From Clostridium sp. CAG:508 (lineage in GTDB: Bacteria > Bacillota > Clostridia > Lachnospirales > Lachnospiraceae), in NCBI GenBank assembly GCA_963650385.1, contig CAVJLL010000005.1, positions 5,959 to 69,958 of the forward strand: a stretch of 64,000 bases of DNA, given 5' to 3'. The stretch's first letter is position 1. Every line of letters begins with the position of its first letter. Made by a program: the position numbers and the translations under genes. Below are positions 21,680-48,103 of the stretch, piece after piece. The notes below the pieces were generated by a model. That model did not search any database. It was not told the DNA's origin and saw nothing but the letters and a program-made list of their open reading frames with translations.

Positions 21680-21907
21680 TCAGGCCATCTCCAGGATGTC
21701 TGCATCCTCCTTGCGGAGTGAGAGCTCATAGCCGCGAACGGTAACCTCAACCGGATCTCCCAGCGGAGCCACCTTGCGGACATAAATCTCTGTCCCCTTG
21801 GTAATTCCCATGTCCATGATGCGTCTCTTCAGTGCACCCTCGCCATGAATTCTGACGACGGTTGCTGTCTGTCCGACCGCAACGTCTCGAAGTGTCTTCA
21901 TTCTCAA
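21680..21907 (-). CDS. feoA: FeoA-family protein
   Basis: 75 aa, SH3-like FeoA pattern (...RRIMDMGITKGTEIYVRKVAPLGDPVEV). GAGGAGG RBS. Confidence 0.88.
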   Translation of the reverse strand: MRMKTLRDVAVGQTATVVRIHGEGALKRRIMDMGITKGTEIYVRKVAPLGDPVEVTVRGYELSLRKEDADILEMA

Positions 21908-21921
21908 TCCTCCTCATGTTC

Positions 21922-22140
21922 TTAGTTAATCATGATCTTGGTCGCCATCTCCGCAGTAATCGCCAGTCTGGATTCCTTCAGATTTACGATGATGTTGCCG
22001 TCTCCGCCTGCGGCGATAATCTCCACCTGTGTGCCGACAACAAATCCCAGATCCTCCAGATGCTTCTTTGCCTCAACGCTGCCGCCGATTCTGGCAACCA
22101 AAACCTTGTCTCCTGTCTTTGCAAATGCCAATGGCATCAT
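21922..22140 (-). CDS. feoA: FeoA-family protein (second copy)
   Basis: 72 aa (KHLEDLGFVVGTQVEII...). First cistron of the feo operon. Confidence 0.85.
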   Translation of the reverse strand: MMPLAFAKTGDKVLVARIGGSVEAKKHLEDLGFVVGTQVEIIAAGGDGNIIVNLKESRLAITAEMATKIMIN

Positions 22141-31759: not shown

Positions 31760-32713
31760 ATGAAATGGACGCAAAAGGAATTGGAGGAGCTCTACCAGAA
31801 GGTTAACCATGCATGTTCGACAGACCCCGAATTCCGAAACAGATTTATAAAGGATCCCAAATCCGCAATGGAGGAGATCGCCGGAGCTCCCCTTCCGGAT
31901 GATTTCCAGCTGCCGCTGATCGAGGCAGACAGCAGCTATCAGGCCTCTTACTGTGTTCCTGAATTCTCATCCGGTGAACTGGATATCCGGAAATTGCAGA
32001 GCGTATATGGCGGTGCCGGGGAGGATCAGAGTGCTCCTGCCGATTCATCCGGCACCGGTCCCAGTGATCCGCAATCTGCAATCTCTTTTCTTCTGATCTT
32101 TTCAGCCTGTGGTGCAGCAATCTCCGTGGGTCCTTGCGGTGGGGATGCCTGCGGAGCCGCTGCCTGCCCGGCAGATGCATGTGGCGGCAAGGCATGTGCT
32201 GCCGCCGCATGCGGCGGCTTTGCCTGTGCAGGCAATGCACAGGCCGTAGAAGGATGCGGCTCGCATATGGGTGTAGCCGAGGCGTCAGTCGTAGCCGGGT
32301 GCGGCGTGGCAGCATGCACCTCTGATGCCGCCTGGCTCGCTGCATGCGGATACGATGTCTTCTGTGTCGGTGCAGCTTGCGGTGCCAAAGTTTCCGCTGC
32401 GTCCTTCGCCTGTGCCGGTGACTTATGCGGTGCACATGGCTGCGGAGCAGATGCGCTCTGCGGCCTAGCAGTCTGCGCCGCCGATGCTACAGGTGTTAAA
32501 GTTGCGGATTTCGGAGGAGCCTGCGGCGCTAATGTCTGCGGCGCAAAATTAGGCTGCATGCCTGATTCATGCGGTGCAAACTATACGGGAACGAACATTG
32601 GCTGCAACGCCGATGTATGCGGTGCACACGGCTGCGGAGCAGCAGCGAGTGAAGGAGGCAGTGATGGCAGTGATGGCGGCGCTGACAATGCCGTCGACAG
32701 CATTGTCAGCTAG
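31760..32713 (+). CDS. RiPP precursor candidate: NHLP-type leader (aa 1-85, ends ...LQSVYGG) plus 232-aa Gly/Ala/Cys-rich core with 26 Cys
   Basis: Strong RBS (AAAGGAG, then 7 nt to the ATG). The leader MKWTQKELEELYQKVNHACSTDPEFRNRFIKDPKSAMEEIAGAPLPDDFQLPLIE...SGELDIRKLQSVYGG matches the nitrile-hydratase-like leader pattern as I remember it (xDPxFRxxLxxDPKxAxxE..G..LP...GG). Core Cys span residues 117-292 (nt 32108-32635), and 15 of the 25 inter-Cys gaps are exactly 4 residues. It is convergent with the maturase/export operon. Confidence 0.8.
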   Translation: MKWTQKELEELYQKVNHACSTDPEFRNRFIKDPKSAMEEIAGAPLPDDFQLPLIEADSSYQASYCVPEFSSGELDIRKLQSVYGGAGEDQSAPADSSGTGPSDPQSAISFLLIFSACGAAISVGPCGGDACGAAACPADACGGKACAAAACGGFACAGNAQAVEGCGSHMGVAEASVVAGCGVAACTSDAAWLAACGYDVFCVGAACGAKVSAASFACAGDLCGAHGCGADALCGLAVCAADATGVKVADFGGACGANVCGAKLGCMPDSCGANYTGTNIGCNADVCGAHGCGAAASEGGSDGSDGGADNAVDSIVS

Positions 32714-32742
32714 TTCTCCGTCCTGATAAGAAAAGTGTTTAT

Positions 32743-32780
32743 TAAAAAGAGTCAGCCTCCTCGGCTGACTCTTTCCTTTT
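32743..32780. terminator. Bidirectional intrinsic terminator between the precursor gene and the giant gene
   Basis: TTAAAAAGAGTCAGCC-TCCTC-GGCTGACTCTTTCCTTTT, a 10-bp stem with an A-run on one side and a T-run on the other. Confidence 0.8.
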
Positions 32781-35700
32781 AACCTGCTTTTCTCCTTCTC
32801 TGCCTGTACCAGGCATATAAGCCCATCAAAGAGCCCGCGCTGAAAATCAGCCACATCCAAGATCTGCTTTCATCACCGGTTTCCTGAATCGCAGGACCTT
32901 TTGAGACACTGTCTGCGTTCTGTGCATCGAGGGAAATTACATCTGCATTCCGATTTAATATGAATTTCCTGATGCCCTTCACCTGTCCGTCTGCCGATCC
33001 ATATCCGCCGACATCTCCAACGCTGTGCTTGTACAATAGCGTCCCGCAGCCGCAGTTCAATCCGTCTCCGGTATCCTGTTTGTAAAACAGAACTTCAATT
33101 CCGCCCAGCTCTCCGTCACTGCTGCGGCCGTATGCCACGGTATACACACCATATTCATCGGTCGCCTGCAGTCCGCACAGAATGCGGTACCGGTATCCCT
33201 GTGCGATTTCGACCCGCACACGATCTCCCGGCTCCAGGCTCGTCTGATCTGCGATCTCCGCTCCCGTATCCGCCCAATACAGCTTCAGCGCATTTTCATC
33301 CAATTCTCCTATGGTATGAAGGATCCGAATGGTTGCCGTGCTGCCGTCTGCGCTGATCTCCGGGTCTCCCAGCAATATGTGATCTCCGAATGCAAATACA
33401 GTCTGATCCGAGAACACGGCGTTGTACCCCTTTGCTGCCTGAATGGTCACGGTGCTCACGTATTGCCTGCCTTCACGGAACTCTGCATCAGGCAGCAGAA
33501 TCGTCTCCATTCCGGAGGCGGCATCATACTGACTCCAGCTCACGGAATAGGTGTACCTTCCGCCCGTTACGGATGTCAGATATGTCTGCAGCAAATTGTT
33601 CTGAACCTTGCTGTCCAATTTAGAGAGCGACCCTGAAGCCCAGCCATCTCCCACCGGAATTCCTCCCGCCTGCGCAATATAGTATTCCAGATACGCATCT
33701 CCCAAAATGTAATTCTTAACGAGCTGTTTGCCTGTCCCGGCTGCCGCACTTGCGCTTCCGGATGAATGCGTGTCTGCATTCTGCCCAGAATCCCTGCTTT
33801 GCCGTTTCACTGCAGCAATGGCATGCTGATACAGTTGGTTCTCACAACCGCAGCCGTCGCTGTCCGCTTCTGTGATAACCATGAGCTCAATATGTGACCA
33901 GCTGCGTCCGCCGGAGCTTCCCCGGACTACGCGGAATATTTTCTTTCCATCCGCGGTTGTTTCGCCGGTATCGATGAGTCCGCCCATAATGTATACACTG
34001 TATCCATCCGCAGCAGAAAGAGTGATTCGATCGTTTGCCTTCAGCTCCTCCTCGTAAGGAATGATCTTTCCGGTATCTGCACGTCGCAGGACAACAATAC
34101 TGCGCACAGGCTCCGTCACCGGGAGCTTATGGAGAATTTTAATCGTTGCTGTCTTCCCGTCGTCACTGATCTGAGGTGTCCCCACCAGTGTGTGGTTCGC
34201 AGCGATGAATTCTGTATTCTGCAGGAACACATGCTGATACTCGTCCAGCGCTGTAAATGTCACTGTGCTGACGTACTGCTGCCCGGCAATGAAGTAACCG
34301 TCATCGTCAAGCGGCTGCTCGCTCTTCGTTTGTTCATCGTATCCCGTCCACTTTACATTTACGGTCATGGATCCCGACAGCATTTTGTTCAGAAGCTTTT
34401 CCAGCAGATTGTCCTTTACTCTTCCGTATACACCTCTGTATGAACCGTTCTTCCATCCATCTCCTGTCGGAATTCCGCAGCCGTTTACCGCAAATTGCCG
34501 CATTACCTTCTCATTCAGATTGAAGTGACGAATTGCCGCAGTATTAAGGCACGCCTTCCATGTGTAGAGATAGGATCCGCAGCCGCACGGAGCGTCTGAA
34601 GCCCCGGCGCTTCCCGTTTCCCTCGGCACAACGGAAATTTCAATCTGCCCGGATGCGCCTTCACCGGATGTGTCCTTCTTCACCGTGTAGATGCGGCAGG
34701 TTTTCCCCTTATAGGGAATGGTGTCCGTCGTAGCCGCCAGTCCGTTTACGATCTGAGCATTCTTCACACTGCCATTGATCCAGATGATAACCTCATCACC
34801 TGCATAGAGGATCTCATCCTTTCCCAGTTCTGTCACTTCCTTTGTATTGTCATCTACCCTGTACAGCGTCGGTTTCTCTGTTTCTTTAAGATTTCCTGTC
34901 CTGTGCGTCACCGTGAGTACGGCAGTTTTCCCGTCGGTGCTGAGCTCAACATCCTCCTCTTTTATGTCATGCTGATAAATGGTAAACTCGGTTTCCTTTG
35001 TAAATAACGACTTGAATCCAGTATTAATCTTAATCTGCAGCCTGCAGCGATAGTCCGTATCCGCCTCGAAATGGTCATCCGGCTTCACTGCAACCCATGT
35101 TCCTTTTTCCTCACTGTCATCCGGCACCCATTTCTGCCATTCGCTGATGCTGTGTGTGTACAGCTTATCATCTAACTTCGTGTTAAACAGGCTGTCCAGG
35201 GCCTTCGCCCACTCTTCAGACACCTCTTTTGCTGTACACGTCTTCGTTTTAGTGCTCTCCCATCCGCCGTTCCACACAGGAATGGTGCCAAAGGAATCCG
35301 CCAGTGTGCTCATGTCGTTTGCTGTCAATGCATACGAAGAGATCTGATCGGGGTTTACCGCCGCAATCGCATGCTGATACAGCAGGTTCTCACAGCCGCA
35401 GCCATCGCTGCCGGCCTTCGGGATAACCGTAAGTGCAATCTGTGACAGCGTCTTTCCGTCTGAGCCTTCCCGAACCACGCGGTATATCTTCTTGCCCTCC
35501 GCGGTCACTTCACCGGTATCAGCAAGTCCGGATATAATCGATACACTGTATCCCTCCTCTGCCGAAACGGTAATCCGGTCCTTCACCTCCAGTTCTTCCT
35601 TATAAGGAATGCTTTTTCCGGTATCTGCATGCTGCAGAGTGACGATTTTATGCAGTGATTTCACCGCCGGAAGCGTGTGGAGAATCTTGATCTCCGCGGT

Positions 35701-38700
35701 TGTTCCGTCTTCACTAATCTCCGGCTCTCCAATCAGTGTGTGGTTAGCTGCAGTAAATTCTGCATTTTGCAGAAAAATGTGCTGATACTTTTCCAACAGC
35801 GTAAATGTCACTGTACTGATATACTGGTGCCCGGCAATAAAGCAGTCGTCATCCGTAAGCGGCCGCTCGCTCTTCGTCTGCTCATCGTATTCCGTCCATT
35901 TCACCTTTACGGTCATGGCTTCCTTCAGCAGGCTGCTCAGGAACGTTTCCAGCTGATTGTCCTTTACCTTTCCGTATTCTTCACTGTACGAACCGTCTTC
36001 CTCTCTTGCCGAAATTCCGGAATTCTTCTCTGCAAACTGCTGCATTTTCTCTGCAGAAAAATCCATCCGATGAATTGCTGCAACATCGGTGCGCGCCTTC
36101 CATGTGTAGAGATAGGATCCGCAGCCGCACGGAGCTTCTGAAGTCCCGGCGTCCCCAGTTTCCTTCGGAACAACAGAAATTTCAATCTGCCCGGACGCGC
36201 TTTCACCGGCTGTGTCCTTCTTCACCGCATAGACACTGTATTTGATTCCCTCATAGGTAATGGTCTCCTTCGTACCGGTCAGGCCGCTTACGATCTGGCA
36301 GCTCTTCGTATTGCCGTTGACCCGGATGATCACCTTATCTTCCGCATAGAGGACATCATCCTCCCCCAGCTCCGTCACTGCCTTTGTTTTGTCATCCACC
36401 CTGTACAGCGTCGGCTTCTCTGTTTCTCTAAGATTTCCTGTCCTGTGCGTCACCGTGAGTACGGCGGTTTTCCCGTCGGCACTGAGCTCAATGTCCGCGT
36501 CATCTATGTCGTGATGGTATATGGAAAACTCCGTTTCCTTTGTAAATAATGACTTGGAATCCGCGTTGATTTTAATCTGCAGCCTGCAGCGATACTCTGT
36601 ATCCGCCTCGAAATGATCATCCGGATTTACTGCAACCCATGTTCCTTTTTCCTCACTGTCATCCGGCACCCATTTCTGCCATTCGCTGATGCTGTGTGTG
36701 TACAGCTTATCATCCAGCTTCGTGTTAAACAGGCTGTCCAGGGCCTTCGCCCACTCTTCAGACACCTCTTCTGCTGTACATGTCTTCGATTTGGTGCTTT
36801 CCCATCCGCCGTTCCACACAGGAATGGTGCCGAAGGAGTCGGCCAATGTGCTCATGTCATTCGCTGTCACGGTATACGAGGAGATCTGATCGGGATTTAC
36901 CTCCGCTATCGCATGCAGATACAGCAGATTCTCGCAGCCGCAGCTGTCGGTGCCGGCATCCGGAATAACCGCAAGCTCAATCTGTGACAGCATCGTTCCG
37001 GCTGTGCTTTGCCGAACCACGCGGTATATTTCTTTTCCGTCCTCGGTTTTCTCTCCAGTATCAACAAGCCCATCCACGATACACACATTGTATCCGTCCT
37101 CTGCCGAAACGGTGATTCTGTCTTTTACCTCCAGTTTTTCCTCGTAAGGAATGTTCTTTCCGGTATCTGCATGCTGCAGAGTGACAATTTCGCTCACCTG
37201 CTTCTTCACTGCCGGAAGCTTATGAACAACAACAATTGTTGCGGTTTGTCCGTCCTCACTGACCGAAATCTCAGGTCTCACCAACTGACCAATCCACGGG
37301 CTCGAACTATATGTTGAAAGCGTGTGGTTTGCCACTTTAAACACTGTATCCTGCAGGAAGATATGCTTATACTCTTTCAGCAGCGTAAATGTCACTGTGC
37401 TGACGTATTGGTGTCCGGCATAAAAATAGTCATTGTCGCGCAGTTCCCGCTTTATATGCGTTCCTTCCTCCAGCTCTGCCCATTTGACCGTTACTGTCAT
37501 GGCTCCCTTCAGCTTATCGTTCAGGAAGTTTTGCAGCTGGTTATCCTTTACCTGTCCGTATCCTTCACGCTCCGAGCCGCCTATTGCCTGAATCCCGCGG
37601 CTGTTTTCTGTGAACTGCTGCAACATTTCCTCGCCAAGCTCCAGCTTATGAATCGCTTCAATATCCATGCAGGCCTTCCAAGTATAGAGAAAAGACTCAC
37701 AGCCGCAGGTATAGAGATTACTCCCCTCCTCAATGGCCGTTGCCTTCGGCATGACTGCAATTTCAACCTGATCGGATGTGCCTTCACCGGATGTCGTCTT
37801 TTTCACCCGATAAACGGGGTAGTTGGTTTCCTTATAGGTGACGGTGTCCTTCGTTTCTACCAGTCCGCTTACGATCCGGCATCCCTGCAGATTTCCCTTT
37901 GTCAGTACGATGACCTCATCACCTGCATAAAGCGTGTCATTTATACTGTCCACTTCGTCTGTTACTTGCTTTTCGCCGTCATACGTCTCCACCACCCTGT
38001 ACAGCGTCGGTGTTACATCTTCAAGGGAAGGAAGGCCGGTCCTGTGATAGACCTTAATGGTTGCTGTCTTTCCATCACTTGTAAGATCTACCTTTACCGT
38101 GTTGTGCCCGGAAATGGAAAATTTCGTTCCTGAGGTGAACACTGCATCGTAATCATCATTGATTTTAATCTGTATTTCGCAGCTGTATTCCGTATCATCT
38201 TCAAAATGGTCATCCGGCCCCAGATCGACCCACGATCCCTGTACCAGATCCGGCCCCCATTTCTTCCATCCGCTTATGCTGTGCGAGTAGAGCTTGTTGT
38301 TAAACAGACTGTCCAATGCCCTTTTCCATTGTGCAGACACTTCCTCTGTCGTACATTGCCTCACCTTGGTGCTCTTCCATCCCTTACTCCACATCGGAAT
38401 TCCGCCAAGATTAACAGCAAATGCGTACATATCATTCGCTGATATCGTATACGAAGGGATCTGGTAGGTTGACGCTTCCTCTTCCGTTGTTTTCCGGATC
38501 AGTGCATAGATTCTCTTATCCTTTTCTACGTTTCCTTTCCCCTGGACCCATTCCGTATAATGGCAAACGCATTGCAGCACATAGTAATGCTGCATGGTCA
38601 ATCCGGCCGTATCCATGGCATACGTATAGGTTCCCCCGCGCGGTTCATACGTTGTGACCCCTTCTCTGTTCGGATTCGGCTGCACATCCTTAAAGACCTC

Positions 38701-40917
38701 AATTTGCGAATTCAGGGGGATCTCCTTCCCATCCTTATCCCTCAGCACAGAATCATTTTTCTCATCCAGGCGAATTCCCTCCGGAAGATTTTCGCCCAGA
38801 TCATATGCATACAGGGAAAGTGTACAGTTCACATGGCTCGAAATCCATGGTTCGTTTGTATATTGGATTTCAACCGGCAGGAGCTCCGACACATTGGTTA
38901 CCGTATAATCTTTATCCGATTCCGTCCTTGTCAGCTGCGCCGGCTGATGAATGCTCAGCTTGGTTGAATCAATATTAAATTTATCTATGCCTTTCTGATT
39001 TGTAAAAAAGCTAATCGTCCCGTAGCTTCCATAGGTTTCCGATTCGGAACTGCTGTCCCACACCTTCAAAAGGAATGGATTGCACGAATAATCCGCCGCC
39101 TTGTCATAAAAGATATTCCATTTTGCTTCATACCCACGCACGCGACCATCCCGATCATCCGCTTCACCGGGGCCCAGCGTCTCTTTTCCTTGCAGCTGAA
39201 GATATCGGTTCTCCTGCGGCTTCAGCTCCGACGGTACTGTTTCCGGTGTATAGGCTGTATACGCCAGCGACCTTCCCTGCAATGTATATACCCCAAAATT
39301 GAGGTGAAGCTCTCGATCTGTCAGATTCTTAAATGTAACATGCAGCATGATATTCCCGTCCTTATCTGCCGCAACATTTTCCTGTTTCATGCTGCAGGTA
39401 AAGGCAGCCGGCACCCCCTTATCCTCTGTATACGTAAAGAGTACCGATTCGTCGGTGTCCGGGAAGAGGATCGGTGTCGAGGTGATCGCATTGGAGCTAA
39501 AATACGAGGCCAGCTCCTTCATCGTAATCTTCCCATCTCCCTGATATCCATCCCGCTTTTCACCACTGTCGAGGCTGGAGATATCTGCGCCGTATGTGTG
39601 GTAGCTATCCACATAACGGTCATGGCCCAGCGCGTGCTCCATGGCCGAAATCAGCTCCGTTCCATACTCCTTCTGCTGAATTCCGGTTTCCATTCTGGTT
39701 GCAGAAGCAATGAAATAGAATTTATGTCCTCCTGCTGCGTTCGCTGCATCTGCGGTATCGGAAGCCTCTGCCGCTTCATCAAGATCATCATAAAACTCTG
39801 TAAGGAAGCTGTAGCCAAATGCATCCGACACTGCCTGCACCTGTTCCTGGACTTCCTGCGGAGAGCTCTCCTGTTCGGCATCCTCGTCCTCTTCGTCCAG
39901 ATCCTCATACAGCGCGGCTGCGTTTACCGCATTTCCGGACAACATTCCTCCGGAAAAGCAGCTTGCCAGCACGACAAATACTTTCCCGTTCAGTTTCTTC
40001 AGATTGGACTTCAGCTCGCCGGCGCTGATGTTATTGCCTCCCTCCAGCGCCAGATAAGAAGAGCCGTCTCTTGTCTGGTTTCCATGTCCGATATAGCAGA
40101 AGAAGGTATACGAATCTTCATCCGTCTGCTCTGCAGCGGCACTGACCGCGTCCCAGATCTTCGATTTCTGGTCCTCCTGACTGTTGTACGTGACGCCAAT
40201 CAATGTGATATCTTCACTCTGAAACTCATTGGTCTGACTGAGGGTATCCCGCATTGCCTCCGCATCCTTTTTCGGAGTCTCTCCAAGATCACTACCCGTC
40301 ATATACACCAGGATAGCTCGCCCCTTCACCTGCCGATCTTCCGAAGAATTTTCCGACGCAGCTGCTGCAGACTTTCCATTGGTATCGCCTTCTGCGGAAT
40401 TTACGGATGAAGCCTTTTCTGCAGAATTCGACTGCGCATCCTCTTTTGCGGACTCTGTCTGTGTACTGCCTTCGGAGGAATTCGCCGATGCAGCACCCTC
40501 CGTGGAGCCTTCCTTTGCACTGCCTTCGGAAGAATTTCCCGACGCAGCACTCTCCGTAGAACCTTCCTTTGCACTGCCTTCGGAAGAATTTTCCGATGCC
40601 GCGCCTTCTGCGGAATCTTCCTTTGTACTGCCTTCGGAGGAACTCACCGATGCAGCACCCTCCGTAGAATCTTCCTTTGACCTGTCTTCGGAAGAATTTT
40701 CCGATGTTATCGCCGAAGCCTTGACCTCATTCTCTGATGCAGTCTCGGAGTTTCCCTCCGCAGAAGATTCTCCCGTCTCTGCCGCAGAGGAACTCTCCTG
40801 TGTGGTTTCTGCATATGCGGTCAATGTGTTCGTCGAAGCGGCCGCAATGGGCGCAAAAGCCAGACCGGCACTCAGCGTAAATGCTATGATTCGATGCCAA
40901 AGCTTTGTCTTTTTCAT
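32779..40917 (-). CDS. Giant (2712 aa) secreted protein: signal peptide, Ser/Glu-rich spacer, clostripain-like (C11, clan CD) peptidase domain, CGC-delimited tandem repeat modules, C-terminal sorting-signal-like anchor
   Basis: I place the start at ATG 40917 (MKKTKLWHRIIAFTLSAGLAFAPIAAASTNTLTAYA, AGGGGAAG RBS), because the track's extra 115 codons overlap the upstream gene. RAILVYMTGSDLGE, then YIGHGN (His) and VVLASCFSGG (Cys at nt 39958-39960), fit the C11/clan CD His-Cys dyad. Seven CGC motifs occur at module borders. The C-terminus is IQETGDES, then a TM helix and RQRRRKAG. Confidence 0.8.
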   Translation of the reverse strand: MKKTKLWHRIIAFTLSAGLAFAPIAAASTNTLTAYAETTQESSSAAETGESSAEGNSETASENEVKASAITSENSSEDRSKEDSTEGAASVSSSEGSTKEDSAEGAASENSSEGSAKEGSTESAASGNSSEGSAKEGSTEGAASANSSEGSTQTESAKEDAQSNSAEKASSVNSAEGDTNGKSAAAASENSSEDRQVKGRAILVYMTGSDLGETPKKDAEAMRDTLSQTNEFQSEDITLIGVTYNSQEDQKSKIWDAVSAAAEQTDEDSYTFFCYIGHGNQTRDGSSYLALEGGNNISAGELKSNLKKLNGKVFVVLASCFSGGMLSGNAVNAAALYEDLDEEDEDAEQESSPQEVQEQVQAVSDAFGYSFLTEFYDDLDEAAEASDTADAANAAGGHKFYFIASATRMETGIQQKEYGTELISAMEHALGHDRYVDSYHTYGADISSLDSGEKRDGYQGDGKITMKELASYFSSNAITSTPILFPDTDESVLFTYTEDKGVPAAFTCSMKQENVAADKDGNIMLHVTFKNLTDRELHLNFGVYTLQGRSLAYTAYTPETVPSELKPQENRYLQLQGKETLGPGEADDRDGRVRGYEAKWNIFYDKAADYSCNPFLLKVWDSSSESETYGSYGTISFFTNQKGIDKFNIDSTKLSIHQPAQLTRTESDKDYTVTNVSELLPVEIQYTNEPWISSHVNCTLSLYAYDLGENLPEGIRLDEKNDSVLRDKDGKEIPLNSQIEVFKDVQPNPNREGVTTYEPRGGTYTYAMDTAGLTMQHYYVLQCVCHYTEWVQGKGNVEKDKRIYALIRKTTEEEASTYQIPSYTISANDMYAFAVNLGGIPMWSKGWKSTKVRQCTTEEVSAQWKRALDSLFNNKLYSHSISGWKKWGPDLVQGSWVDLGPDDHFEDDTEYSCEIQIKINDDYDAVFTSGTKFSISGHNTVKVDLTSDGKTATIKVYHRTGLPSLEDVTPTLYRVVETYDGEKQVTDEVDSINDTLYAGDEVIVLTKGNLQGCRIVSGLVETKDTVTYKETNYPVYRVKKTTSGEGTSDQVEIAVMPKATAIEEGSNLYTCGCESFLYTWKACMDIEAIHKLELGEEMLQQFTENSRGIQAIGGSEREGYGQVKDNQLQNFLNDKLKGAMTVTVKWAELEEGTHIKRELRDNDYFYAGHQYVSTVTFTLLKEYKHIFLQDTVFKVANHTLSTYSSSPWIGQLVRPEISVSEDGQTATIVVVHKLPAVKKQVSEIVTLQHADTGKNIPYEEKLEVKDRITVSAEDGYNVCIVDGLVDTGEKTEDGKEIYRVVRQSTAGTMLSQIELAVIPDAGTDSCGCENLLYLHAIAEVNPDQISSYTVTANDMSTLADSFGTIPVWNGGWESTKSKTCTAEEVSEEWAKALDSLFNTKLDDKLYTHSISEWQKWVPDDSEEKGTWVAVNPDDHFEADTEYRCRLQIKINADSKSLFTKETEFSIYHHDIDDADIELSADGKTAVLTVTHRTGNLRETEKPTLYRVDDKTKAVTELGEDDVLYAEDKVIIRVNGNTKSCQIVSGLTGTKETITYEGIKYSVYAVKKDTAGESASGQIEISVVPKETGDAGTSEAPCGCGSYLYTWKARTDVAAIHRMDFSAEKMQQFAEKNSGISAREEDGSYSEEYGKVKDNQLETFLSSLLKEAMTVKVKWTEYDEQTKSERPLTDDDCFIAGHQYISTVTFTLLEKYQHIFLQNAEFTAANHTLIGEPEISEDGTTAEIKILHTLPAVKSLHKIVTLQHADTGKSIPYKEELEVKDRITVSAEEGYSVSIISGLADTGEVTAEGKKIYRVVREGSDGKTLSQIALTVIPKAGSDGCGCENLLYQHAIAAVNPDQISSYALTANDMSTLADSFGTIPVWNGGWESTKTKTCTAKEVSEEWAKALDSLFNTKLDDKLYTHSISEWQKWVPDDSEEKGTWVAVKPDDHFEADTDYRCRLQIKINTGFKSLFTKETEFTIYQHDIKEEDVELSTDGKTAVLTVTHRTGNLKETEKPTLYRVDDNTKEVTELGKDEILYAGDEVIIWINGSVKNAQIVNGLAATTDTIPYKGKTCRIYTVKKDTSGEGASGQIEISVVPRETGSAGASDAPCGCGSYLYTWKACLNTAAIRHFNLNEKVMRQFAVNGCGIPTGDGWKNGSYRGVYGRVKDNLLEKLLNKMLSGSMTVNVKWTGYDEQTKSEQPLDDDGYFIAGQQYVSTVTFTALDEYQHVFLQNTEFIAANHTLVGTPQISDDGKTATIKILHKLPVTEPVRSIVVLRRADTGKIIPYEEELKANDRITLSAADGYSVYIMGGLIDTGETTADGKKIFRVVRGSSGGRSWSHIELMVITEADSDGCGCENQLYQHAIAAVKRQSRDSGQNADTHSSGSASAAAGTGKQLVKNYILGDAYLEYYIAQAGGIPVGDGWASGSLSKLDSKVQNNLLQTYLTSVTGGRYTYSVSWSQYDAASGMETILLPDAEFREGRQYVSTVTIQAAKGYNAVFSDQTVFAFGDHILLGDPEISADGSTATIRILHTIGELDENALKLYWADTGAEIADQTSLEPGDRVRVEIAQGYRYRILCGLQATDEYGVYTVAYGRSSDGELGGIEVLFYKQDTGDGLNCGCGTLLYKHSVGDVGGYGSADGQVKGIRKFILNRNADVISLDAQNADSVSKGPAIQETGDESRSWMWLIFSAGSLMGLYAWYRQRRRKAG
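33046..37707 (-). repeat. In-frame long tandem repeats inside the giant gene (period about 1542-1578 nt; two alternating module types)
   Basis: CGC codon triplets lie at 33046-54, 33844-52, 34579-87, 35392-400, 36121-29, 36934-42 and 37699-707, giving offsets of 1542 nt for 34579->36121 and 35392->36934. The near-identical shadow ORFs at 35147-35347 and 36689-36889 are also offset by 1542 nt. Confidence 0.9.
40466..40735 (-). repeat. Five tandem 54-nt repeats encoding the Ser/Glu-rich spacer (SSEGSxKEGSTEGAAS...)
   Basis: CTGCCTTCGGA(A/G)GAA recurs at 40466, 40520, 40574 and 40628, with a CTGTCTTCGGAAGAA variant at 40682, an exact 54-nt period. Confidence 0.9.
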
Positions 40918-40958
40918 TCGATGCTTCCCCTGTTGTTCATTTCCGCGATACCGCTGCC

Positions 40959-42353
40959 CTATGCCCGGCAAAGATACCCACGCCAGTACAGCTCCTGCAG
41001 CAGATTCAAAACCCTGTCTGTCCCCGCTGCTCCCAGATTCAACCCTCTTAATACGTTTCCCGGCTCCTGCGGATGCTGAAGCTGCTGCATGGCCTGCAGC
41101 AGGACCGGATGCGCATCCATGTAGTAGCCCGCATTGTCCGCCAGGAGCACAATTTGCTTTTTCCCCGTCCCGGTGCTGTTCTCCTCCGGAAACCACTTCG
41201 TCTCCGTCAGTCTTTCTCCAACCAGCATGCGTACATTGCGGTTGATCTGCACCGGTCTCCACAACGGAAGGCTTCCGAAGGCATGACTTCGGAACAGCTG
41301 CGTCAGGCCGCTCCGAAAGCTCTCCGCATCATGAAACTCGGCGGTCCCCCAGACGCGATACCCCTTCGGAAACTGCTCCGACGGGAGCTCCGGCTCTATA
41401 AATTCCATCAGGCCGTCCACCATATTCACGCGCACGCCTGCAATGCAGCTGATGCTGTATCGCAGGAGCTTTTCCTTCGGCAGCTTCTTTCCCTGAGCGG
41501 CTCTGCCCGATTCCGAATACCGGTTCACCGACTCCGGATTATTGCTTAAAACCTCCACATGCTCCAGCTCCATCGGCGTAAACAGATCCATCAGCTGCCG
41601 GAAATGCTGCAGCGATGTAGCCGACATCCGATAAGACACCCGCTGCCGCAGGCAGTCCGGTCCAATCCACGACAGAAGGCTTTTGGTTCTGTCCGGGTCA
41701 CGCTGCGCCGCTGCCGAAGTTGTCTGCGGAACGGTTCCGTATATGTCCCGCATATCCGCCAGAAATTTCTCATAGTCCGGATTGTCCATCGGCTCTGTCC
41801 CAAAGTAGCACGGGCAGCTATCCGCAATGTCCCCCAGCAGTTCTCTGGTAATGGTCAGGACATCCCGCCACAGCTGCCGGTGCTCTTTGGTGTAAAGGTA
41901 ATTCTCCTGCCATGGCTTCGCCTGAAATCCGCAGAACGGACACTGGACCCTGCAGCCGCTGGATAATTCGAACGCCGCCGGAAAGTAATGTATGTTCGGA
42001 TGCTCACGCATCGCTGCGCTTTCCAGAAAGCAACGGTTCCGCACGATATTGGCATAACGCCAGAGGCTCTCTGCCGCATACCGGTCCCGCGCCACCAGCC
42101 GCTCTTCCTCTCTCACGATCGCCCGGCTCCGCGCCGTATATTCCTTCAGAAACGGATTGGCTGCAATTTCTTCTTCCGCCGGATTTCCCCGGCAAATCTG
42201 ATGAATTGCATCCAGTACGGTCTCCGCATCCAGCGCAATCCCGGATTTCTTAAAATGTGCTGCGATCTCGTCCGCGGCATGCAGGCGGAAGTCAGGATCC
42301 GAGTAAAACCACTCCATCATCCGCTTGCATTCAGCATATTCGCGTGCTGTCAT
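40959..42353 (-). CDS. Radical SAM enzyme without SPASM domain; possibly a PoyD/OspD-like RiPP amino-acid epimerase
   Basis: CRVQCPFC (C-x3-C-x2-C) at nt 41931-41954, followed by a FGTEPMDNP SAM-region-like motif. The N-terminal AECKRMMEWFYSDPDFR resembles the N-termini of proteusin epimerases as I remember them. ATGA overlap with the upstream SPASM gene. Confidence 0.6.
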   Translation of the reverse strand: MTAREYAECKRMMEWFYSDPDFRLHAADEIAAHFKKSGIALDAETVLDAIHQICRGNPAEEEIAANPFLKEYTARSRAIVREEERLVARDRYAAESLWRYANIVRNRCFLESAAMREHPNIHYFPAAFELSSGCRVQCPFCGFQAKPWQENYLYTKEHRQLWRDVLTITRELLGDIADSCPCYFGTEPMDNPDYEKFLADMRDIYGTVPQTTSAAAQRDPDRTKSLLSWIGPDCLRQRVSYRMSATSLQHFRQLMDLFTPMELEHVEVLSNNPESVNRYSESGRAAQGKKLPKEKLLRYSISCIAGVRVNMVDGLMEFIEPELPSEQFPKGYRVWGTAEFHDAESFRSGLTQLFRSHAFGSLPLWRPVQINRNVRMLVGERLTETKWFPEENSTGTGKKQIVLLADNAGYYMDAHPVLLQAMQQLQHPQEPGNVLRGLNLGAAGTDRVLNLLQELYWRGYLCRA

Positions 42354-43723
42354 TTCTTCTCTCCGCCCTCGGCAGCTGCCTTCTGTGCTTGTGCCGCAGC
42401 CTGAGCGGCCTGTCGACGCTGCTGCTCCTGTTTGGCTTCATAGTGGAGCTCCAGCAGATCCTCCAGATTATCCCGGAAATAGGAACACGAGCTATGCTTC
42501 ACGTCCGTATGCAGATTTTTCTGCCGGATTCTGTGACATCCTCCGTCACAAATCGGGAAACAGAAGCACTCCTTACACTCTTGCGAATCCAGATAGGAGC
42601 ATCCCTCCATTCCTTCTGCCAGAAGTGCCATATTCCAATTGTCAAAACGATCAATGGATCCGATGACCTTTTCCTTAAGCCCTACGTCATCCCAACACTT
42701 ATACAGCTCTCCGTCCGGTCCGACAACATAGGCATTGCGGCAGTTCAGGGTACATCCCGGTCCCTTTTTCTGCGGGAACAGCGGAAGCGCCGTGATTCTC
42801 TCCTCTCTTGCCATTCTGGATATGAACTCTCCCTGCGCCTTCGGCTCAAAGAAGCAGCTGCAGTCCGGATGATCATCTCCCTTTACAAAGCCGGGATATA
42901 CCGTAATTCTCTTCCCGAAATCCTTTGCATACCGTTTCCGAATCATGCGGAATACATCTGCATACTCGTCCTCATTGCGGCTGTCTACATTCACGCGAAT
43001 ATGAATCATTCCCTTGAAATTCGTGGCAAGAATCCGATCAATATTATCCAGGATCACATCGTAGGTCGGTGCTCCGTTCTTTAAATATCTTCTCCCGTCG
43101 TGCGTCTCCTTCCTGCCGTCCAGCGTAATCTGAAGGTATCCGATGTGCAGATCGTTTAATTTTGCAATTTTGTCATCCGTCATCAGGTAGCCATTTGTGA
43201 TCATACTGGCAGTATAGGTTTTATCCATATCCTTCAGGCGTTTATCAATACTGAGAATCCGGTCAAAGGCCAGAAGCGGCTCTCCTCCGTACCAGATGAT
43301 CGACAGATTGTCTGCCTTGAAGCTCTTAATAAAGCGGATCAGCTTATCTTCCACCTCCTGGGTCATCGGTTTTCCTGTGCGGTTTCCCTCAAAGCAATAG
43401 CTGCAGTCAAAATTGCAGGCTCTGGTGACTGCAAGCGTCAGTGTAAGAGTATTCCCCGCATAACGCCGCGTCAGATTTCTCATCTTGATAATGTTGTACA
43501 GATCGTCGTCCCGATGGTCTTCTACCAGATAGCCCAGCGCACGCAGCCGCATGTACAGCATGGGGATCTTCGAATAATCGTATCCCTCCGGATCCTGCAT
43601 AATCCCCCGGATAATCTCCACTTCCTCATCCGGTACCTTCATAAAGGCGCGCGATGCCGAATGGAACAGCAGCCATCCATTCCTCTGTGATTCAAACAAC
43701 TTGCTGTATCTTGACCATTTCAT
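42350..43723 (-). CDS. Radical SAM/SPASM-domain peptide maturase (sacti-/ranthipeptide-type thioether synthase candidate)
   Basis: CNFDCSYC at nt 43394-43417, WYGGEPLL, and a C-terminal auxiliary-cluster Cys pattern (CTLNC...YKCWDD...CSYLDSQECKECFCFPICDGGCHRIR). About 95 aa precede the cluster motif, which may form a peptide-recognition region. AAGGAGAG RBS. Confidence 0.85.
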   Translation of the reverse strand: MKWSRYSKLFESQRNGWLLFHSASRAFMKVPDEEVEIIRGIMQDPEGYDYSKIPMLYMRLRALGYLVEDHRDDDLYNIIKMRNLTRRYAGNTLTLTLAVTRACNFDCSYCFEGNRTGKPMTQEVEDKLIRFIKSFKADNLSIIWYGGEPLLAFDRILSIDKRLKDMDKTYTASMITNGYLMTDDKIAKLNDLHIGYLQITLDGRKETHDGRRYLKNGAPTYDVILDNIDRILATNFKGMIHIRVNVDSRNEDEYADVFRMIRKRYAKDFGKRITVYPGFVKGDDHPDCSCFFEPKAQGEFISRMAREERITALPLFPQKKGPGCTLNCRNAYVVGPDGELYKCWDDVGLKEKVIGSIDRFDNWNMALLAEGMEGCSYLDSQECKECFCFPICDGGCHRIRQKNLHTDVKHSSCSYFRDNLEDLLELHYEAKQEQQRRQAAQAAAQAQKAAAEGGEKK

Positions 43724-43738
43724 CCTTACTCTCCTTTT

Positions 43739-45910
43739 TTATCCGGTCACCGTCTGGTAGCCGGCAAGTCTGTAAAACAATCCCTTCTGCTCCATCAGTT
43801 CTTTATAGCTTCCAATCTCTGCAATGCTGCCCTTTTCAAGTACAACAATGCGGTCACAGTGCACGACTGTTGACAACCGGTGTGCCACCACAATGCGTGT
43901 TGCATTATACGTATTCAGGCTCTGACAGATCTTCTCCTGCGATACATTGTCCAGTGCACTGGTTGCCTCATCAAACAGAAGAACGGTCGGCTGTCCGACC
44001 AGCGCCCTGGCGATCAGAATCCGCTGTCTTTCTCCGCCCGACAGAGTTCTGCCCTGCTCTGATACGAAGGTTTCCAGCCCCATCGGCATTTTCTCCACAA
44101 CATCGGTCAGCTGCGAATCCTCCACTGCCTTCTGAATTTCCTCCGGTGCAGCCTTGGGACAGGTCACCGTAATGTTGCGGCGGATCGTGCCGGAGAAGAG
44201 TCGTCCCTCCTGCAGCACCACGCCCAGCTTCTTTCTGAATTCCGGCAGGCAGAGCCTCTCCAGCGAAATTCCATCGTAATAGATCTGTCCCTTCAGCGGG
44301 GTTTCAAATCCCAGCAGCAGCCGAAGCAATGTGGATTTTCCGCAGCCGGTCTCACCGACAATTCCAATATACTCTCCCGGCTTTATATGAAGGGAAATAT
44401 CCTTCAATACCATTTCCCCCTTTTTTTCATAGCAGAAGCTCACATGGGAAAGCTCAATATCTCCCTTCAGCGCTTTCGGGATATCCCCTTCCAGACTGCT
44501 CTCCGGCTCCATCCGCAGCAGCTCGGATGACTCCACCAGTGTGGGGATCGAGGATACGATATCCATCCCCGCATTGGCCACACTGCACATTGCGGCTGTA
44601 AACGCCGTCAATGCTGTCAAAAAGCCCATAAATATGCCAATATTGATGTCCAGGTTCTGTGTCGCATAGATCCAGTACAGCACCAGCATAGACAAGGCAC
44701 TTCCGGATGTACTCAGGGCAGAGGAAAGTCTTTTGTTCCAGGCAATACTCTGATCCGCAAGCTCCGCCCCCGAAGCCAGCTCCATGTGTTCACATACTAC
44801 GTCGTCCTCCGCTCCTGCCGTTCGAATGGATTCAATTCCCTGCAGAGACTGATAGAGGAACGATCGCTGCCGACCGATGGCTCTTGATTTGTCCTGCTGC
44901 GCCCTTCGGTCCAGAAAGCCTATCCCTATCGTAATGGCAACATTCAAAACCACAAATCCGGAAGAAATATGACTCAGGAGCGAGGAATACTGATGCATCT
45001 TCCAGATGTAGATCAGCGAAAAGGCACCGCGAAGGAGGATCTGCATCGCATTCTGAAATGCACTCATATAGGTTGAATTCATTTTCTGAATTCGATAGGC
45101 CTGCTCTGCACTCTCCTTCTCACGAAAGCACTTCTCCGGGAGATGGAAAATGTGATCATAGATTGCCCCCTGCAGTGCATAGCGAACGATACTGGTAATG
45201 CGATAGTTTTCCAACGCGCCCGTTACTGTAAAACACAGGTTTGCCGCCATGCATGAAAGAAGAACAACTCCAATGCCAATCAGCTGATCCACATCGCCGG
45301 TTGGTATAATCTCATCGAAGATCAGCTGATTCAATGTTGCAAGCTGTACCGAGATCAGTGTGACAATTCCCGTACACCCTATGCAGAACAGGAAATCAGA
45401 CGGGCGAAAGGCCTTCAATGCCAATCTGAAAATATCCTGGAAGGTTACCTTTTTCGCAGGAAAGGTCCAATGGAACTCTACGGCCGTATTTTCCAGCTCC
45501 TCCAGCTCTTTCTTAGAAGCCGTATGCGAGCTTTTGTCTGCCGGATCAATCAATGTCACAGTTCCCCTGTGTCCCGGTTTACAGATCAGATATTCAGGGC
45601 TTCCCCTTTTCCTGCACAGAATGGGATAGGTCAGCATCCGGTTCCAGTTCTTATCCAGTGTTACGGATCTGGAAATGAACCCGGAAACTCTGGCAATGTC
45701 CTCCAGTCCCGCATCCTGCCCGCATGCCTCGCGCACCCGTTCATAAGGTGCAATCGTAATCCCCATCAGCTGACAAAGGTAATTGGCCGCGTCATAAAGC
45801 GAATTGCCGCTCGGCTTCATACGGCTGAACTTACGTTTGGCTTTCTTCTCGAACGTAGATAATATGATATTGCAAGTGCGAGTCTGTACGGTCGTCATAT
45901 TCTCTGACAT
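43739..45910 (-). CDS. NHLP-type bacteriocin export ABC transporter, permease/ATPase subunit (no active peptidase)
   Basis: 723 aa with a 6-TM exporter core, Walker A GETGCGKST, LSGGERQR and LLFDEATS. The N-terminal region lacks a C39 catalytic Cys context. Confidence 0.8.
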   Translation of the reverse strand: MSENMTTVQTRTCNIILSTFEKKAKRKFSRMKPSGNSLYDAANYLCQLMGITIAPYERVREACGQDAGLEDIARVSGFISRSVTLDKNWNRMLTYPILCRKRGSPEYLICKPGHRGTVTLIDPADKSSHTASKKELEELENTAVEFHWTFPAKKVTFQDIFRLALKAFRPSDFLFCIGCTGIVTLISVQLATLNQLIFDEIIPTGDVDQLIGIGVVLLSCMAANLCFTVTGALENYRITSIVRYALQGAIYDHIFHLPEKCFREKESAEQAYRIQKMNSTYMSAFQNAMQILLRGAFSLIYIWKMHQYSSLLSHISSGFVVLNVAITIGIGFLDRRAQQDKSRAIGRQRSFLYQSLQGIESIRTAGAEDDVVCEHMELASGAELADQSIAWNKRLSSALSTSGSALSMLVLYWIYATQNLDINIGIFMGFLTALTAFTAAMCSVANAGMDIVSSIPTLVESSELLRMEPESSLEGDIPKALKGDIELSHVSFCYEKKGEMVLKDISLHIKPGEYIGIVGETGCGKSTLLRLLLGFETPLKGQIYYDGISLERLCLPEFRKKLGVVLQEGRLFSGTIRRNITVTCPKAAPEEIQKAVEDSQLTDVVEKMPMGLETFVSEQGRTLSGGERQRILIARALVGQPTVLLFDEATSALDNVSQEKICQSLNTYNATRIVVAHRLSTVVHCDRIVVLEKGSIAEIGSYKELMEQKGLFYRLAGYQTVTG

Positions 45911-45922
45911 AGCATTCTCCCG

Positions 45923-48103
45923 TTATCCCTCGAGCAGTCTGCGATATTCCCCTTCCTGCTGCAGCAAGTCCTCATGCCTCCCGCATTGAACAATTCTTCC
46001 CCGGTCCATTACCAGAATCAGATCACAGCTGCGGATTGCCGACAGGCGATGTGCCACGATCACGCAGGATATTCCTCTTTCCAGGATATTCCGCATCACC
46101 TTGTCTTCCGTTTCCGGATCCATGGCACTCGTCGCCTCGTCCAGAAGGAGTATGGCAGGCTTTTCCGCCAGAGCTCTTGCGATCTGCAGCTTCTGCCGCT
46201 GGCCGCCGGAAAGATTTGCGGCACCTTCCTTCAACCGATACTCCATTCCGCCCGGCAGTGTATTGACCATGTCATAGGCATCCGCACATTTCAGTGCCTC
46301 CACCATCTCCGCCTCGGATATCTCCTTGCTCCAGAACGTCAGATTCTCACGTATGGTCCCTGCGAAAAAGAATGCACTCTGTCCGACTACAGCAATATTC
46401 TTCTTCAGAAGCTGTGGTGTCATATCCTGTATTCGAATCCCATCATACCGAATTTCACCGCTCTGCGGATATAAAATACCGGCCAATATGCGTACAAGCG
46501 TGCTCTTGCCGCAGCCGGAGGCTCCCGTGATTCCCAGGCAACTCCCCGGCATGAGCCGGAAGCTGAGTTCCTGCAGCACCGGTGCCTGGGTAGTGCGGTA
46601 GGAAAAGGTGATATTGCGAACCTCAATCTCACCCTGCAGCGGCTTTACCGGCTGATTGGCTTCCTCTTCCTTCCGGAAACGGGCATCCTCTTCGGTCCCC
46701 TCGATATCCTCTATGCTGAGCATTTCCGCCTTCAGTGTCTGAATGCTCTGGCTGTAGCCGATCAGTTCGTTCATCGGCTGCGTAAATCCGCCCAGGAGCT
46801 GCACGAAAGCGGTCAGCATGCCTGCGGTAATGCTGCCGTTAATGACCAGTACGCCGCCGATCATCAATACCACAATCTGGAAAATGCCGGAAATAACGGA
46901 CGGAAATGCACTCAGAATCTGCTGCGCCTTTCCCATGTCCTGTTCACTCCCGGTCGTCCCGCAGAAGGCCCCCAGGATGTCACTTGCATAATCTGTCTCT
47001 GCTCCGTTCGCCTTGATGGTGCTGAAGACCGACAAGCCGGCGCATAATAGGCCGGAAAGCCGGTTCTGATCCTGGCGCTGCTTCAGCGCCATTTCGCGAA
47101 GGACCTGCACCGGCAGAAGGCTTAAAACCATGTTCAGCACGGTTCCGAGCACGCCGATTGCCGTCAAGAGCGGACTGTATGTCCACAGCATCAGCAGATA
47201 AAATATCGATTCAAAGACATTCAGCACCGCATCAATCAGCTTATCTGCAAGAAAGCTGTTGATATCACCGTTGTTCTCTACCCGCTGTGACATCTCCCCC
47301 AAATATCTCTGATCAAAAAACGGGATCGGAAGGCGAAATAAATGCCGCAGCAGCTGATAGTCGGTCAGTATATTCAGCTTCAGCTTCAATTTGGCCAGGG
47401 TCGCTGACCGGACCCACCCGAGCACGATCTGCAGAACGTATACTCCCGCAAGGCACGTCAGCAGCAGCACAAGCTGACCGGTTCTGCCATTCATGACGAC
47501 ATGGTCCACATACAGCTGCAGCAGGATTGACATAAAAATGCACGGAAAAACAAGAAGTCCTCCCGCCAGCAGCAGATAGACCACCGTACTCGTCTGTCCC
47601 AAAAGGCGCTCCTGCAGCAGCCGCAGCAGATCGCTGGGCTGTTCTTTTCTCTGGAAGTGCTCCGTTTCTTCGAAGTACAGCACAATGCCGGTAAATTCCC
47701 GGTCCAGCTCCTCCCAGGTGATCTTCCGGTGCCCCCTGGCCGGGTCATTGAGGTATACCCGTTTGCCGCGAATGCCTTCCAGAACCACAAAGTGATTAAA
47801 TCCCCAGTGCAGGATACAGGGCAGCGGAAATTTCCGGAGCTCCTCCACTGATTTGGAAAAGCCATGCCCCTTCATGCCATAGTGCTCTGCCGCCAGAACC
47901 AGGTCTGCTGCACTGCTGCCGTCCCTGGATACTCCGCAGACATACCGCAGCTCCTCCATCGAGACATTGCAGTGATGATATTTCAGAATCATGAGGAGGC
48001 TGGCCGCGCCGCACTCTGCAGCCTCCACCTGAAAGACCTCCGGTGTATGAACCCGCCGCGGTTGTTTTTGTGTATCTGACTTCCGTCGTCTGCTCTTCAC
48101 CAT
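45923..48103 (-). CDS. NHLP-type bacteriocin export ABC transporter with N-terminal C39 peptidase domain
   Basis: 726 aa. The C39 triad context is intact: QVEAAECGAASL (Cys), NHFVVLE (His), LNDPARG (Asp). ABC motifs GASGCGKST, LSGGQRQK and LLLDEATS. TAATG overlap with the upstream adaptor gene. Confidence 0.88.
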   Translation of the reverse strand: MVKSRRRKSDTQKQPRRVHTPEVFQVEAAECGAASLLMILKYHHCNVSMEELRYVCGVSRDGSSAADLVLAAEHYGMKGHGFSKSVEELRKFPLPCILHWGFNHFVVLEGIRGKRVYLNDPARGHRKITWEELDREFTGIVLYFEETEHFQRKEQPSDLLRLLQERLLGQTSTVVYLLLAGGLLVFPCIFMSILLQLYVDHVVMNGRTGQLVLLLTCLAGVYVLQIVLGWVRSATLAKLKLKLNILTDYQLLRHLFRLPIPFFDQRYLGEMSQRVENNGDINSFLADKLIDAVLNVFESIFYLLMLWTYSPLLTAIGVLGTVLNMVLSLLPVQVLREMALKQRQDQNRLSGLLCAGLSVFSTIKANGAETDYASDILGAFCGTTGSEQDMGKAQQILSAFPSVISGIFQIVVLMIGGVLVINGSITAGMLTAFVQLLGGFTQPMNELIGYSQSIQTLKAEMLSIEDIEGTEEDARFRKEEEANQPVKPLQGEIEVRNITFSYRTTQAPVLQELSFRLMPGSCLGITGASGCGKSTLVRILAGILYPQSGEIRYDGIRIQDMTPQLLKKNIAVVGQSAFFFAGTIRENLTFWSKEISEAEMVEALKCADAYDMVNTLPGGMEYRLKEGAANLSGGQRQKLQIARALAEKPAILLLDEATSAMDPETEDKVMRNILERGISCVIVAHRLSAIRSCDLILVMDRGRIVQCGRHEDLLQQEGEYRRLLEG

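Follow-up and report, generated by a model that had tools for sequence, protein, structure and literature searches.

A metacaspase-like giant surface protein at the end of a predicted NHLP-type RiPP operon in Clostridium sp. CAG:508

Introduction

Why should an operon for the maturation and export of a ribosomally synthesised and post-translationally modified peptide (RiPP) end in a gene for a surface protein of 2,712 residues with a protease-like head? The question is raised by Clostridium sp. CAG:508 (assembly GCA_963650385.1, contig CAVJLL010000005.1), of which we analysed positions 5,959 to 69,958, a stretch of 64,000 nucleotides called the window below and numbered from its first letter. 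An earlier reading made without database searches (the sequence-only reading) had described this protein, here termed the giant, as clostripain-like, and had offered for it the roles of a second processing protease, an immunity or docking scaffold, or a substrate of the neighbouring enzymes. We show that its head is a C14, metacaspase-like clan CD cysteine peptidase domain in which the catalytic dyad is intact and invariant in the family, and that the layout of the genes makes the giant the last co-directional gene of a predicted NHLP-type 'Cys-every-fifth' RiPP maturation and export operon. The anatomy of the protein and the conservation of its linkage to the operon are solid. Gene context suggests that the giant may trim the exported, modified peptide outside the cell, the best supported of these readings, to which we give a probability of roughly 40%.

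A metacaspase-like head domain

The giant is divided as follows:
32779..40917 (-), giant gene, 2,712 aa plus stop codon; open reading frame with ATG start and ribosome-binding site
40810..40917 (-), Sec-type signal peptide, residues 1-36, MKKTKLWHRIIAFTLSAGLAFAPIAAASTNTLTAYA then cut before E; from sequence, with the hydropathy peak at residues 9-29
40327..40809 (-), Ser/Glu/Ala-rich low-complexity spacer, residues 37-197; from composition and repeats
39418..40326 (-), C14 (metacaspase-like) clan CD peptidase domain, residues 198-500; from Pfam, a PDB-sequence profile and AlphaFold2 (AF2)/Foldseek
38470..39417 (-), two beta-sandwich domains, residues 501-816; from the AF2 model and Foldseek matches to tandem Ig/FnIII-like domains
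33010..38469 (-), seven stalk modules of ~245-270 aa each, from self-alignment: A1 817-1085, B1 1086-1340, A2 1341-1611, B2 1612-1854, A3 1855-2125, B3 2126-2370, a linker, B4 2396-2636
32782..32889 (-), sorting-signal-like C-terminal region, residues 2677-2712; from sequence layout

The ATG lies at position 40917 behind the ribosome-binding site AGGGGAAG, and at a near-identical locus in a metagenome-assembled genome (MAG), GCA_963640915.1, the giant is called at 2,709 aa. The overall architecture is that described from the sequence features: the signal peptide, the opening of the peptidase domain (RAILVYMTGSDLGE, residues 200-213) and the dyad contexts IGHGN (residues 276-280) and LASCFSGG (317-324) are all in place. 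The Ser/Glu-rich spacer is likewise present, at 161 aa against an earlier figure of roughly 155 aa, and is made up of 27% Ser, 18% Glu and 17% Ala, an 18-aa repeat occurring in it four times; the repeats that had been noticed are real, and extend over 1,820 aa (residues 817-2636), not about 2,000 aa.

Pfam Peptidase_C14 (PF00656) matches the giant at 21.5 bits over the whole protein and at 23.9 bits for the isolated domain with its acidic insert spliced out, a small margin over the gathering score of 21.4, and the same family is annotated on homologues, among them those at loci L021/L022 and at feoAB-linked loci (L and P numbers designate loci and homologous proteins). In a search of PDB sequences with a profile of 19 family members, Arabidopsis metacaspase-4 (AtMC4) is found at E=8e-11 and metacaspase-9 (AtMC9) at 7e-6. 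The clan CD His/Cys dyad proposed from the sequence is confirmed by this search: His278 (codon 40084-40086) and Cys320 (codon 39958-39960), invariant in the 19-sequence core alignment, align with the catalytic pair of metacaspase-4, YIGHG with YSGHG and ASCFSGG with DSCHSGG. The AF2 model of residues 195-815 (predicted local distance difference test score, pLDDT, 79; predicted template-modelling score, pTM, 0.82) reaches a pLDDT >90 for most of the head between residues 205 and 325 and 76-94 for residues 405-494, and predicts a caspase-hemoglobinase fold there, interrupted after the catalytic Cys by a 60-aa disordered acidic insert (residues 337-396; disordered from 328 to 396 in the model). 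Foldseek matches this model to AtMC9 (8a53, template-modelling (TM) score on the target 0.46) and to the MALT1 caspase-Ig3 structures (4i1p/3uo8, 0.40-0.41) with probability 1.00, scores that are diluted because the whole three-domain model was the query. The remainder of the Foldseek list is mostly tandem beta-sandwich proteins, matching the two domains after the head.

The clostripain-family (C11) assignment of the sequence-only reading does not survive these comparisons, and we reject it at the family level. The His-Gly/Ser-Cys dyad context is common to clan CD, and the weak match of the family profile to the C11 zymogen 6mzo (E=0.12) stands beside those to the metacaspases in the same search. 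The C11 model itself (PF03415) gives no match at E<=1 with the whole protein or at E<=10 with the isolated domain freed of its acidic insert, while C14 passes its cutoff and C13 reaches 14.5 bits; metacaspase-9 and MALT1 are the clan CD structures among the top 50 Foldseek matches, with no C11 entry. We therefore regard a clostripain-type head as most improbable.

Around the active site the L1 Asp (D218) is nearly invariant in the family. In metacaspases and paracaspases the pocket for a basic P1 residue is formed in part by an Asp at Cys-2, two positions ahead of the catalytic Cys; this position is Ala318 in the giant, Ser, Ala or Cys in its nearest homologues, and Asp in most of the remaining family. 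The peptidase domain also includes an EF-hand-like loop (about residues 455-470; 39508..39555, minus strand), which has the canonical form DxDxDGxIxxxEL in homologues whose C-termini read as cell-wall-binding repeats and is split by an insertion in the window giant and its closest relatives. At this loop the family profile also matches EF-hand calcium-binding proteins, in keeping with the Ca2+ dependence of metacaspases (PMC4357240).

The surrounding RiPP operon

The giant gene is bordered by these features:
48103..48720 (-), short HlyD-like NHLP secretion protein, 205 aa; TIGR03794, last third only
45923..48103 (-), C39-peptidase ABC1 exporter; TIGR03796, 807 bits
43739..45910 (-), ABC2 export gene; TIGR03797
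42350..43723 (-), radical S-adenosylmethionine (SAM)/SPASM maturase, 457 aa, closest to Clo7bot and CefB; profile matches
40959..42353 (-), PoyD-like homologue of radical SAM RiPP epimerases, 464 aa; scores 305.8 bits with TIGR04517 (cutoff 325)
40918..40958 (-), intergenic gap of 41 nt between the PoyD-like gene and the giant gene, with the ribosome-binding site inside
32744..32772 (-), intrinsic terminator with the hairpin AGAGTCAGCC-loop-GGCTGACTCT and then a T run; read directly in the sequence
31760..32713 (+), convergent RiPP precursor, 317 aa; leader_NHLP E=2.9e-8, CefA 29.2 bits

Transcription would run from the short HlyD-like gene through the C39-ABC, ABC, radical SAM/SPASM and PoyD-like genes to the giant. 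The coordinates confirm that the giant starts 41 nt after the radical SAM gene (40959..42353), and the gene order confirms its place as the last co-directional gene after the maturases; a site scan of the gap found no terminator-like or promoter-like site, in agreement with the absence of a terminator reported earlier. The terminator beyond the giant, missed by a simple terminator scan and found by direct reading, starts 7 nt past the stop codon and separates the giant from the convergent precursor gene. Since that gene lies just past the terminator, the giant is flanked on both sides by RiPP genes.

No precursor gene was found inside the operon or in its intergenic regions, and Pfam returns no match for the 317-aa convergent open reading frame, which was recognised as the precursor through its orthologue at L003 and NCBIfam. 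Its leader of ~84 aa is of NHLP type (TIGR03793, matched over the full profile length) and ends VYGG/AG. The 233-aa core, with the hydrophobic segment AISFLLIFSACGAAISVG near its start, is rich in Ala, Gly and Cys, its 26 Cys residues mostly five residues apart, and is followed by an acidic Ser/Gly tail. Both NCBIfam matches are below cutoff (30 bits for CefA). Orthologues of 238-351 aa are encoded at L003, L020, L021 (two copies), L023, L024 and L028. The NHLP leader and the ABC1/ABC2/HlyD-type transport trio have been described by Haft et al. 2010 (PMC2887384).

The HlyD-like protein is only 201-205 aa long in the window, L003, L020-L022, L024 and L028, corresponding each time to the last third of TIGR03794; as this short form is common to all the related clusters it is no truncation artefact. 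The GC content of the RiPP cluster including the giant (window 32000..48000) is 0.49-0.56, compared to 0.57-0.61 in the upstream polysaccharide glycosyltransferase cluster. This lower GC is compatible with an acquired island. The same gene block recurs between other flanks at L003/L020.

Conservation of the linkage

A word-indexed homologue search with residues 195-643 returned nothing, probably as the candidate list was crowded by acidic low-complexity words. When 1.84 billion representative proteins were searched exhaustively, 57 relatives emerged at E<=1e-3, about 25 of which share the whole ~600-aa core, keeping the two beta-sandwich domains together with the peptidase head. The giant's family is a small, previously undescribed group of surface-displayed C14-like (clan CD) proteins.

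Clusters related to that of the window fall into these groups by identity of the PoyD-like protein:
L003/L020, 62%, giant present directly after PoyD
L021/L022, 50%, giant present directly after PoyD (2,739-2,746 aa), the two precursor genes relocated upstream in divergent orientation
L023, L024/25, L026/27, L028 and L032/33, 37-48%, giant absent
L031, 48%, locus cut short by the contig end

Three lineages (the window, L003/L020 and L021/L022) thus have the giant immediately behind the PoyD-like gene, with gaps of 41-105 nt. The same seven-gene block is present at L003/L020 between outer flanks that differ from those of the window, and in two of the three lineages the giant lies between the maturase genes and the precursor gene. 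Among these lineages PoyD identity falls to 50% and identity of the giant core to 36%, despite which the three RiPP-linked giants form one clade in a neighbour-joining tree of the core (bootstrap 63/100). The giant was probably recruited once and then retained through substantial divergence and local rearrangement. Being present in three lineages and absent from five related ones, it is a lineage-specific accessory gene, not a core RiPP gene.

Seen from the side of the giant, the linkage is rare. A scan of species-representative genomes with a five-sequence alignment gave 17 giant-family loci, only one of which has the RiPP operon, namely L003, the closest orthologue (~60% identity); no radical SAM genes are found upstream of the homologues at at least 12 other loci, in ~2.4 to 10 kb of upstream sequence. 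A scan of JGI metagenomes with the giant core found no relatives, and one with the radical SAM/SPASM protein retrieved just three clusters, giant-less or inconclusive. The co-occurrence with radical SAM genes that the sequence-only reading asked about is therefore maintained in the three lineages and breaks down in the five giant-less clusters and in these unlinked homologues. The general function of the giant's family does not concern RiPPs.

Rates of divergence are very unequal within the related clusters (L003, L020-L028 and L031-L033): identity to the window is 68-83% for the radical SAM/SPASM protein, only 37-63% for the PoyD-like protein and 31-60% for the precursor.

Surface display

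The giant is a secreted protein, probably anchored to the cell wall, with the peptidase head at its distal end. It ends AIQETGDESRS-WMWLIFSAGSLMGLYAWY-RQRRRKAG, an 18-aa hydrophobic stretch followed by a basic tail, and the pentapeptide IQETG takes the place of LPXTG in an otherwise three-part sorting-signal layout. The hydrophobic segment of the C-terminal transmembrane anchor described earlier is thus present, but the layout looks sortase-type and not that of a plain transmembrane anchor. NCBIfam matches of the giant include no cell-wall anchor model. The combination of TGD, hydrophobic stretch and basic tail recurs in the protein encoded at 10046..10819 and in homologues P0002, P0003, P0007 and P0010-12; other homologues end in SPKTGD, or in repeats that read by eye as cell-wall-binding (choline-binding-like). 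Surface display is well supported by the Sec signal, by the TGD motif common to the sortase-cluster protein and by the homologue C-termini, and covalent attachment by sortase, read from a non-canonical motif, is likely.

The window itself contains a sortase-dependent pilus cluster (10046..16015, minus strand), made up of a tip pilin with a VWA domain (LPNTG), a backbone pilin of the SpaA/GramPos_pilinBB type (LPSAG), a sortase that has TLVTC and, beside the sortase, the 257-aa SpaA-like protein just mentioned (10046..10819), which carries GEGTGDSSE, a hydrophobic stretch and RRHKEK.

Possible role of the giant

If the giant acts on the RiPP, the modified core of roughly 230 aa would be exported, the C39 transporter would remove its leader at the Gly-Gly site, and the surface-tethered peptidase would then trim the product outside the cell; candidate targets would be the hydrophilic linker of ~20 residues at the N-terminus and the Ser/Gly/acidic tail at the C-terminus. 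The tail is a possible substrate feature, no more than suggestive. In an alignment of eight precursors, a Ser/Gly/acidic extension of 20-40 aa follows the last Cys repeat in all five from giant-linked clusters and is seen only there, the three from giant-less clusters ending at or just after the repeat region. The more specific proposal, that a clade of giant, wall-anchored metacaspase-like peptidases was recruited as the dedicated extracellular maturation enzyme of an epimerised, Cys-cross-linked NHLP RiPP with an unusually large core of ~230 aa, whose tail or N-terminal linker it would remove at the cell surface, is in our view doubtful.

Several considerations weigh against processing. The tail correlation compares three lineages with three and is not phylogenetically independent, and the arrangement in the three linked lineages may have persisted by common descent alone. 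Five related cluster lineages work without the giant, which is therefore not essential to the pathway, and as no fewer than 12 members of the family are encoded away from RiPP clusters, several by feoAB, the ancestral job of the family is unrelated to RiPPs. The P1 specificity of the giant is not predictable because the Asp before the catalytic Cys is replaced by Ala318, and a protein of 2,712 aa is a large investment for a trimming step. The caution of the sequence-only reading as to role was well judged.

The giant might simply be a surface protease or adhesin of general function that sits behind the RiPP operon and has no biochemical link to the peptide. Its targets would then be host, dietary or neighbouring-cell proteins, or its role one in the cell envelope, and co-transcription would at most co-regulate two traits of competition or colonisation. 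This is what would be expected from a family most of whose members have no RiPP neighbours and occur in varied contexts (feoAB, apparent type IV pilus-like genes and others), and from RiPP clusters that lack the giant; the feoAB genes of the window, ~11 kb from the giant, echo the feoAB-adjacent P0007 and P0010, and the RiPP operon could have inserted by a resident gene. Against such an unconnected neighbour stand a giant-after-PoyD order that was kept in three lineages while the flanks, the position of the precursor and the sequence of the giant itself changed, the location of the giant between maturase and precursor genes in two of them, and the single clade of linked giants, which fits long-term retention of the linkage. 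We consider it unlikely, though a serious contender.

The Cys-rich product and the Cys motifs of the stalk invite two further explanations. The motif CGC[EG]xxLY closes each of the seven stalk modules, and disulfide exchange between these conserved CxC motifs and the 26-Cys product is conceivable in principle; stalk and head might bind, sequester or degrade the cell's own peptide for self-protection, or display it. The giant is surface-tethered, and profile searches recognised no dedicated immunity gene in the cluster. Nevertheless the CxC motif is kept in homologues without RiPP neighbours, including those with cell-wall-binding-like C-termini, and is for this reason best seen as a structural feature of the module; moreover the giant-less sister clusters would be left without immunity, and neither Pfam nor Foldseek recognises a binding domain in the giant. 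An immunity or docking function is accordingly improbable. It could also be supposed that the giant is itself modified, as its seven CGC motifs are encoded directly after genes for a Cys-targeting radical SAM/SPASM enzyme and an epimerase, which might introduce thioethers or epimerise residues there, in an operon with no precursor visible inside. A true NHLP-leader, CefA-like precursor is adjacent, however, the giant begins with a Sec signal in place of an NHLP leader, the CxC motif is found where no radical SAM genes are near, and in the AF2 model of B2 one of the module's strands is built from the residues that immediately follow CGC. We reject the suggestion that the giant is a substrate of the radical SAM enzymes as having very little chance of being correct.

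Comparison with known systems

In its head the giant is closest to the metacaspases, paracaspases and orthocaspases (MEROPS C14, C14B, clan CD), with which it shares the dyad in (S/I)GHG and xxCxSGG and, in the AF2 model, the fold. AtMC4, AtMC9 and MALT1 are the best matches, and in MALT1 an Ig-like domain directly follows the caspase domain, as a beta-sandwich follows the head in the giant. The EF-hand-like loop recalls metacaspase Ca2+ dependence (PMC4357240). Unlike the well-studied members, which are intracellular, the giant is secreted and would be surface-anchored on a stalk of ~2,200 aa; it differs further in the 60-aa acidic disordered insert after the catalytic Cys, in the change from Asp to Ala two residues before it, in scoring only just above the Pfam cutoff, in the scarcity of its relatives (~57 among 1.84 billion representatives) and in being encoded in a RiPP cluster. 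Clostripain (C11) has in common with it the clan CD dyad and secretion in Clostridia, and is Ca2+-dependent (PMC4357240), but the head of the giant has no significant sequence, profile or fold match to that family.

A parallel in position is provided by the lantibiotics. NisP, CylA and LicP are second-step extracellular leader peptidases, subtilisin-like serine proteases (S8) of ~400-700 aa; NisP is LPXTG-anchored, and CylA and LicP act after the C39 transporter has cut at Gly-Gly. Like the giant they are encoded in RiPP clusters and secreted, and they act after the transporter; the likeness is positional only. The giant, with its 2,712 aa and a head homologous to clan CD cysteine peptidases, belongs to another protease clan.

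The cluster as a whole resembles the proteusin/NHLP and NCBIfam CefA/CefB systems. It shares with them the NHLP leader, the NHLM ABC1/ABC2/HlyD trio, the PoyD-like radical SAM protein, the CefB-/Clo7bot-like radical SAM/SPASM protein and the CefA-like core. Every component in the window nonetheless scores below its curated equivalog cutoff, and the core of 233 aa compares with 65 positions in the CefA model. Our literature search found no described NHLP/CefA-type system with a clan CD surface protein, and no paper linking clan CD peptidases to RiPPs or RiPP clusters. A RiPP cluster with an accessory extracellular protease is a known pattern; what is new is a clan CD giant in an NHLP/Cys-every-fifth/PoyD-like cluster.

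Were the head to process the exported peptide, RiPP maturation would gain a new protease clan, with the giant as its first clan CD member, and for the first time a substrate, concrete and testable, could be assigned to a secreted metacaspase homologue from bacteria, a little-understood group. The locus would also flag an uncharacterised RiPP type of gut or rumen Clostridia, defined by the NHLP leader, the 233-aa Cys-every-fifth core, the PoyD-like epimerase and the radical SAM/SPASM protein. Should the giant have no part in processing, it would still define a small family, hitherto undescribed, of clan CD proteins that are displayed on the surface and have a new stalk module of ~250 aa.

Stalk modules and other family loci

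Self-alignment indicates that the seven stalk modules are homologous and of two alternating subtypes (A1 B1 A2 B2 A3 B3, linker, B4). The A modules are 52-81% identical to each other and B1-B3 56-63%, B4 has 33-36% identity to the other B modules, and A compared with B 21-29%. The AF2 model of B2 (pLDDT 86) is all-beta with two short helices, and the modules can be described as Ig-like/beta-barrel. Foldseek against PDB structures gave no convincing match for the stalk module, the best being intimin Ig-like domains (E=2.6e-3), and the only Pfam match of a stalk module is DUF1481, an enterobacterial lipoprotein family, in the N-terminal sub-domain of the A-type modules (e.g. residues 1852-1916, ~35169..35363, minus strand). 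This match is weak, with 30.1 bits for the whole giant (cutoff 25) and only 14 bits for module A2 alone, and, as the PDB comparison is no more convincing, we give the modules no role beyond that of a stalk. Almost all members of the family contain one or more of these modules, and seven are present in the giant and in P0003.

The other family loci have varied surroundings. P0007 (1,277 aa) and P0010 (1,416 aa), whose last module is B4-like and which carry the TGD signal, are encoded directly upstream of feoA-feoB (L029 and L030); at L029 two family genes stand in tandem and an HMA-domain gene follows the feo genes. The feo genes of the window are arranged feoA-feoA-feoB with an HMA-like gene (19401..22140). 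The three genes before the homologues at L005 (1264..5383) and L006 (5690..9749) have N-termini that, by eye, are PilB/GspE-, PilT- and PilC/GspF-like. MAG titles at L003-L019 (Succinivibrio, Paludibacteraceae, Bacteroidaceae, Parolsenella and others) are at odds with the Gram-positive features of these loci, that is, sortase-type signals and C-terminal repeats read as cell-wall-binding, and we regard these organism labels as unreliable; other homologue loci are labelled Lachnospiraceae or Acutalibacteraceae.

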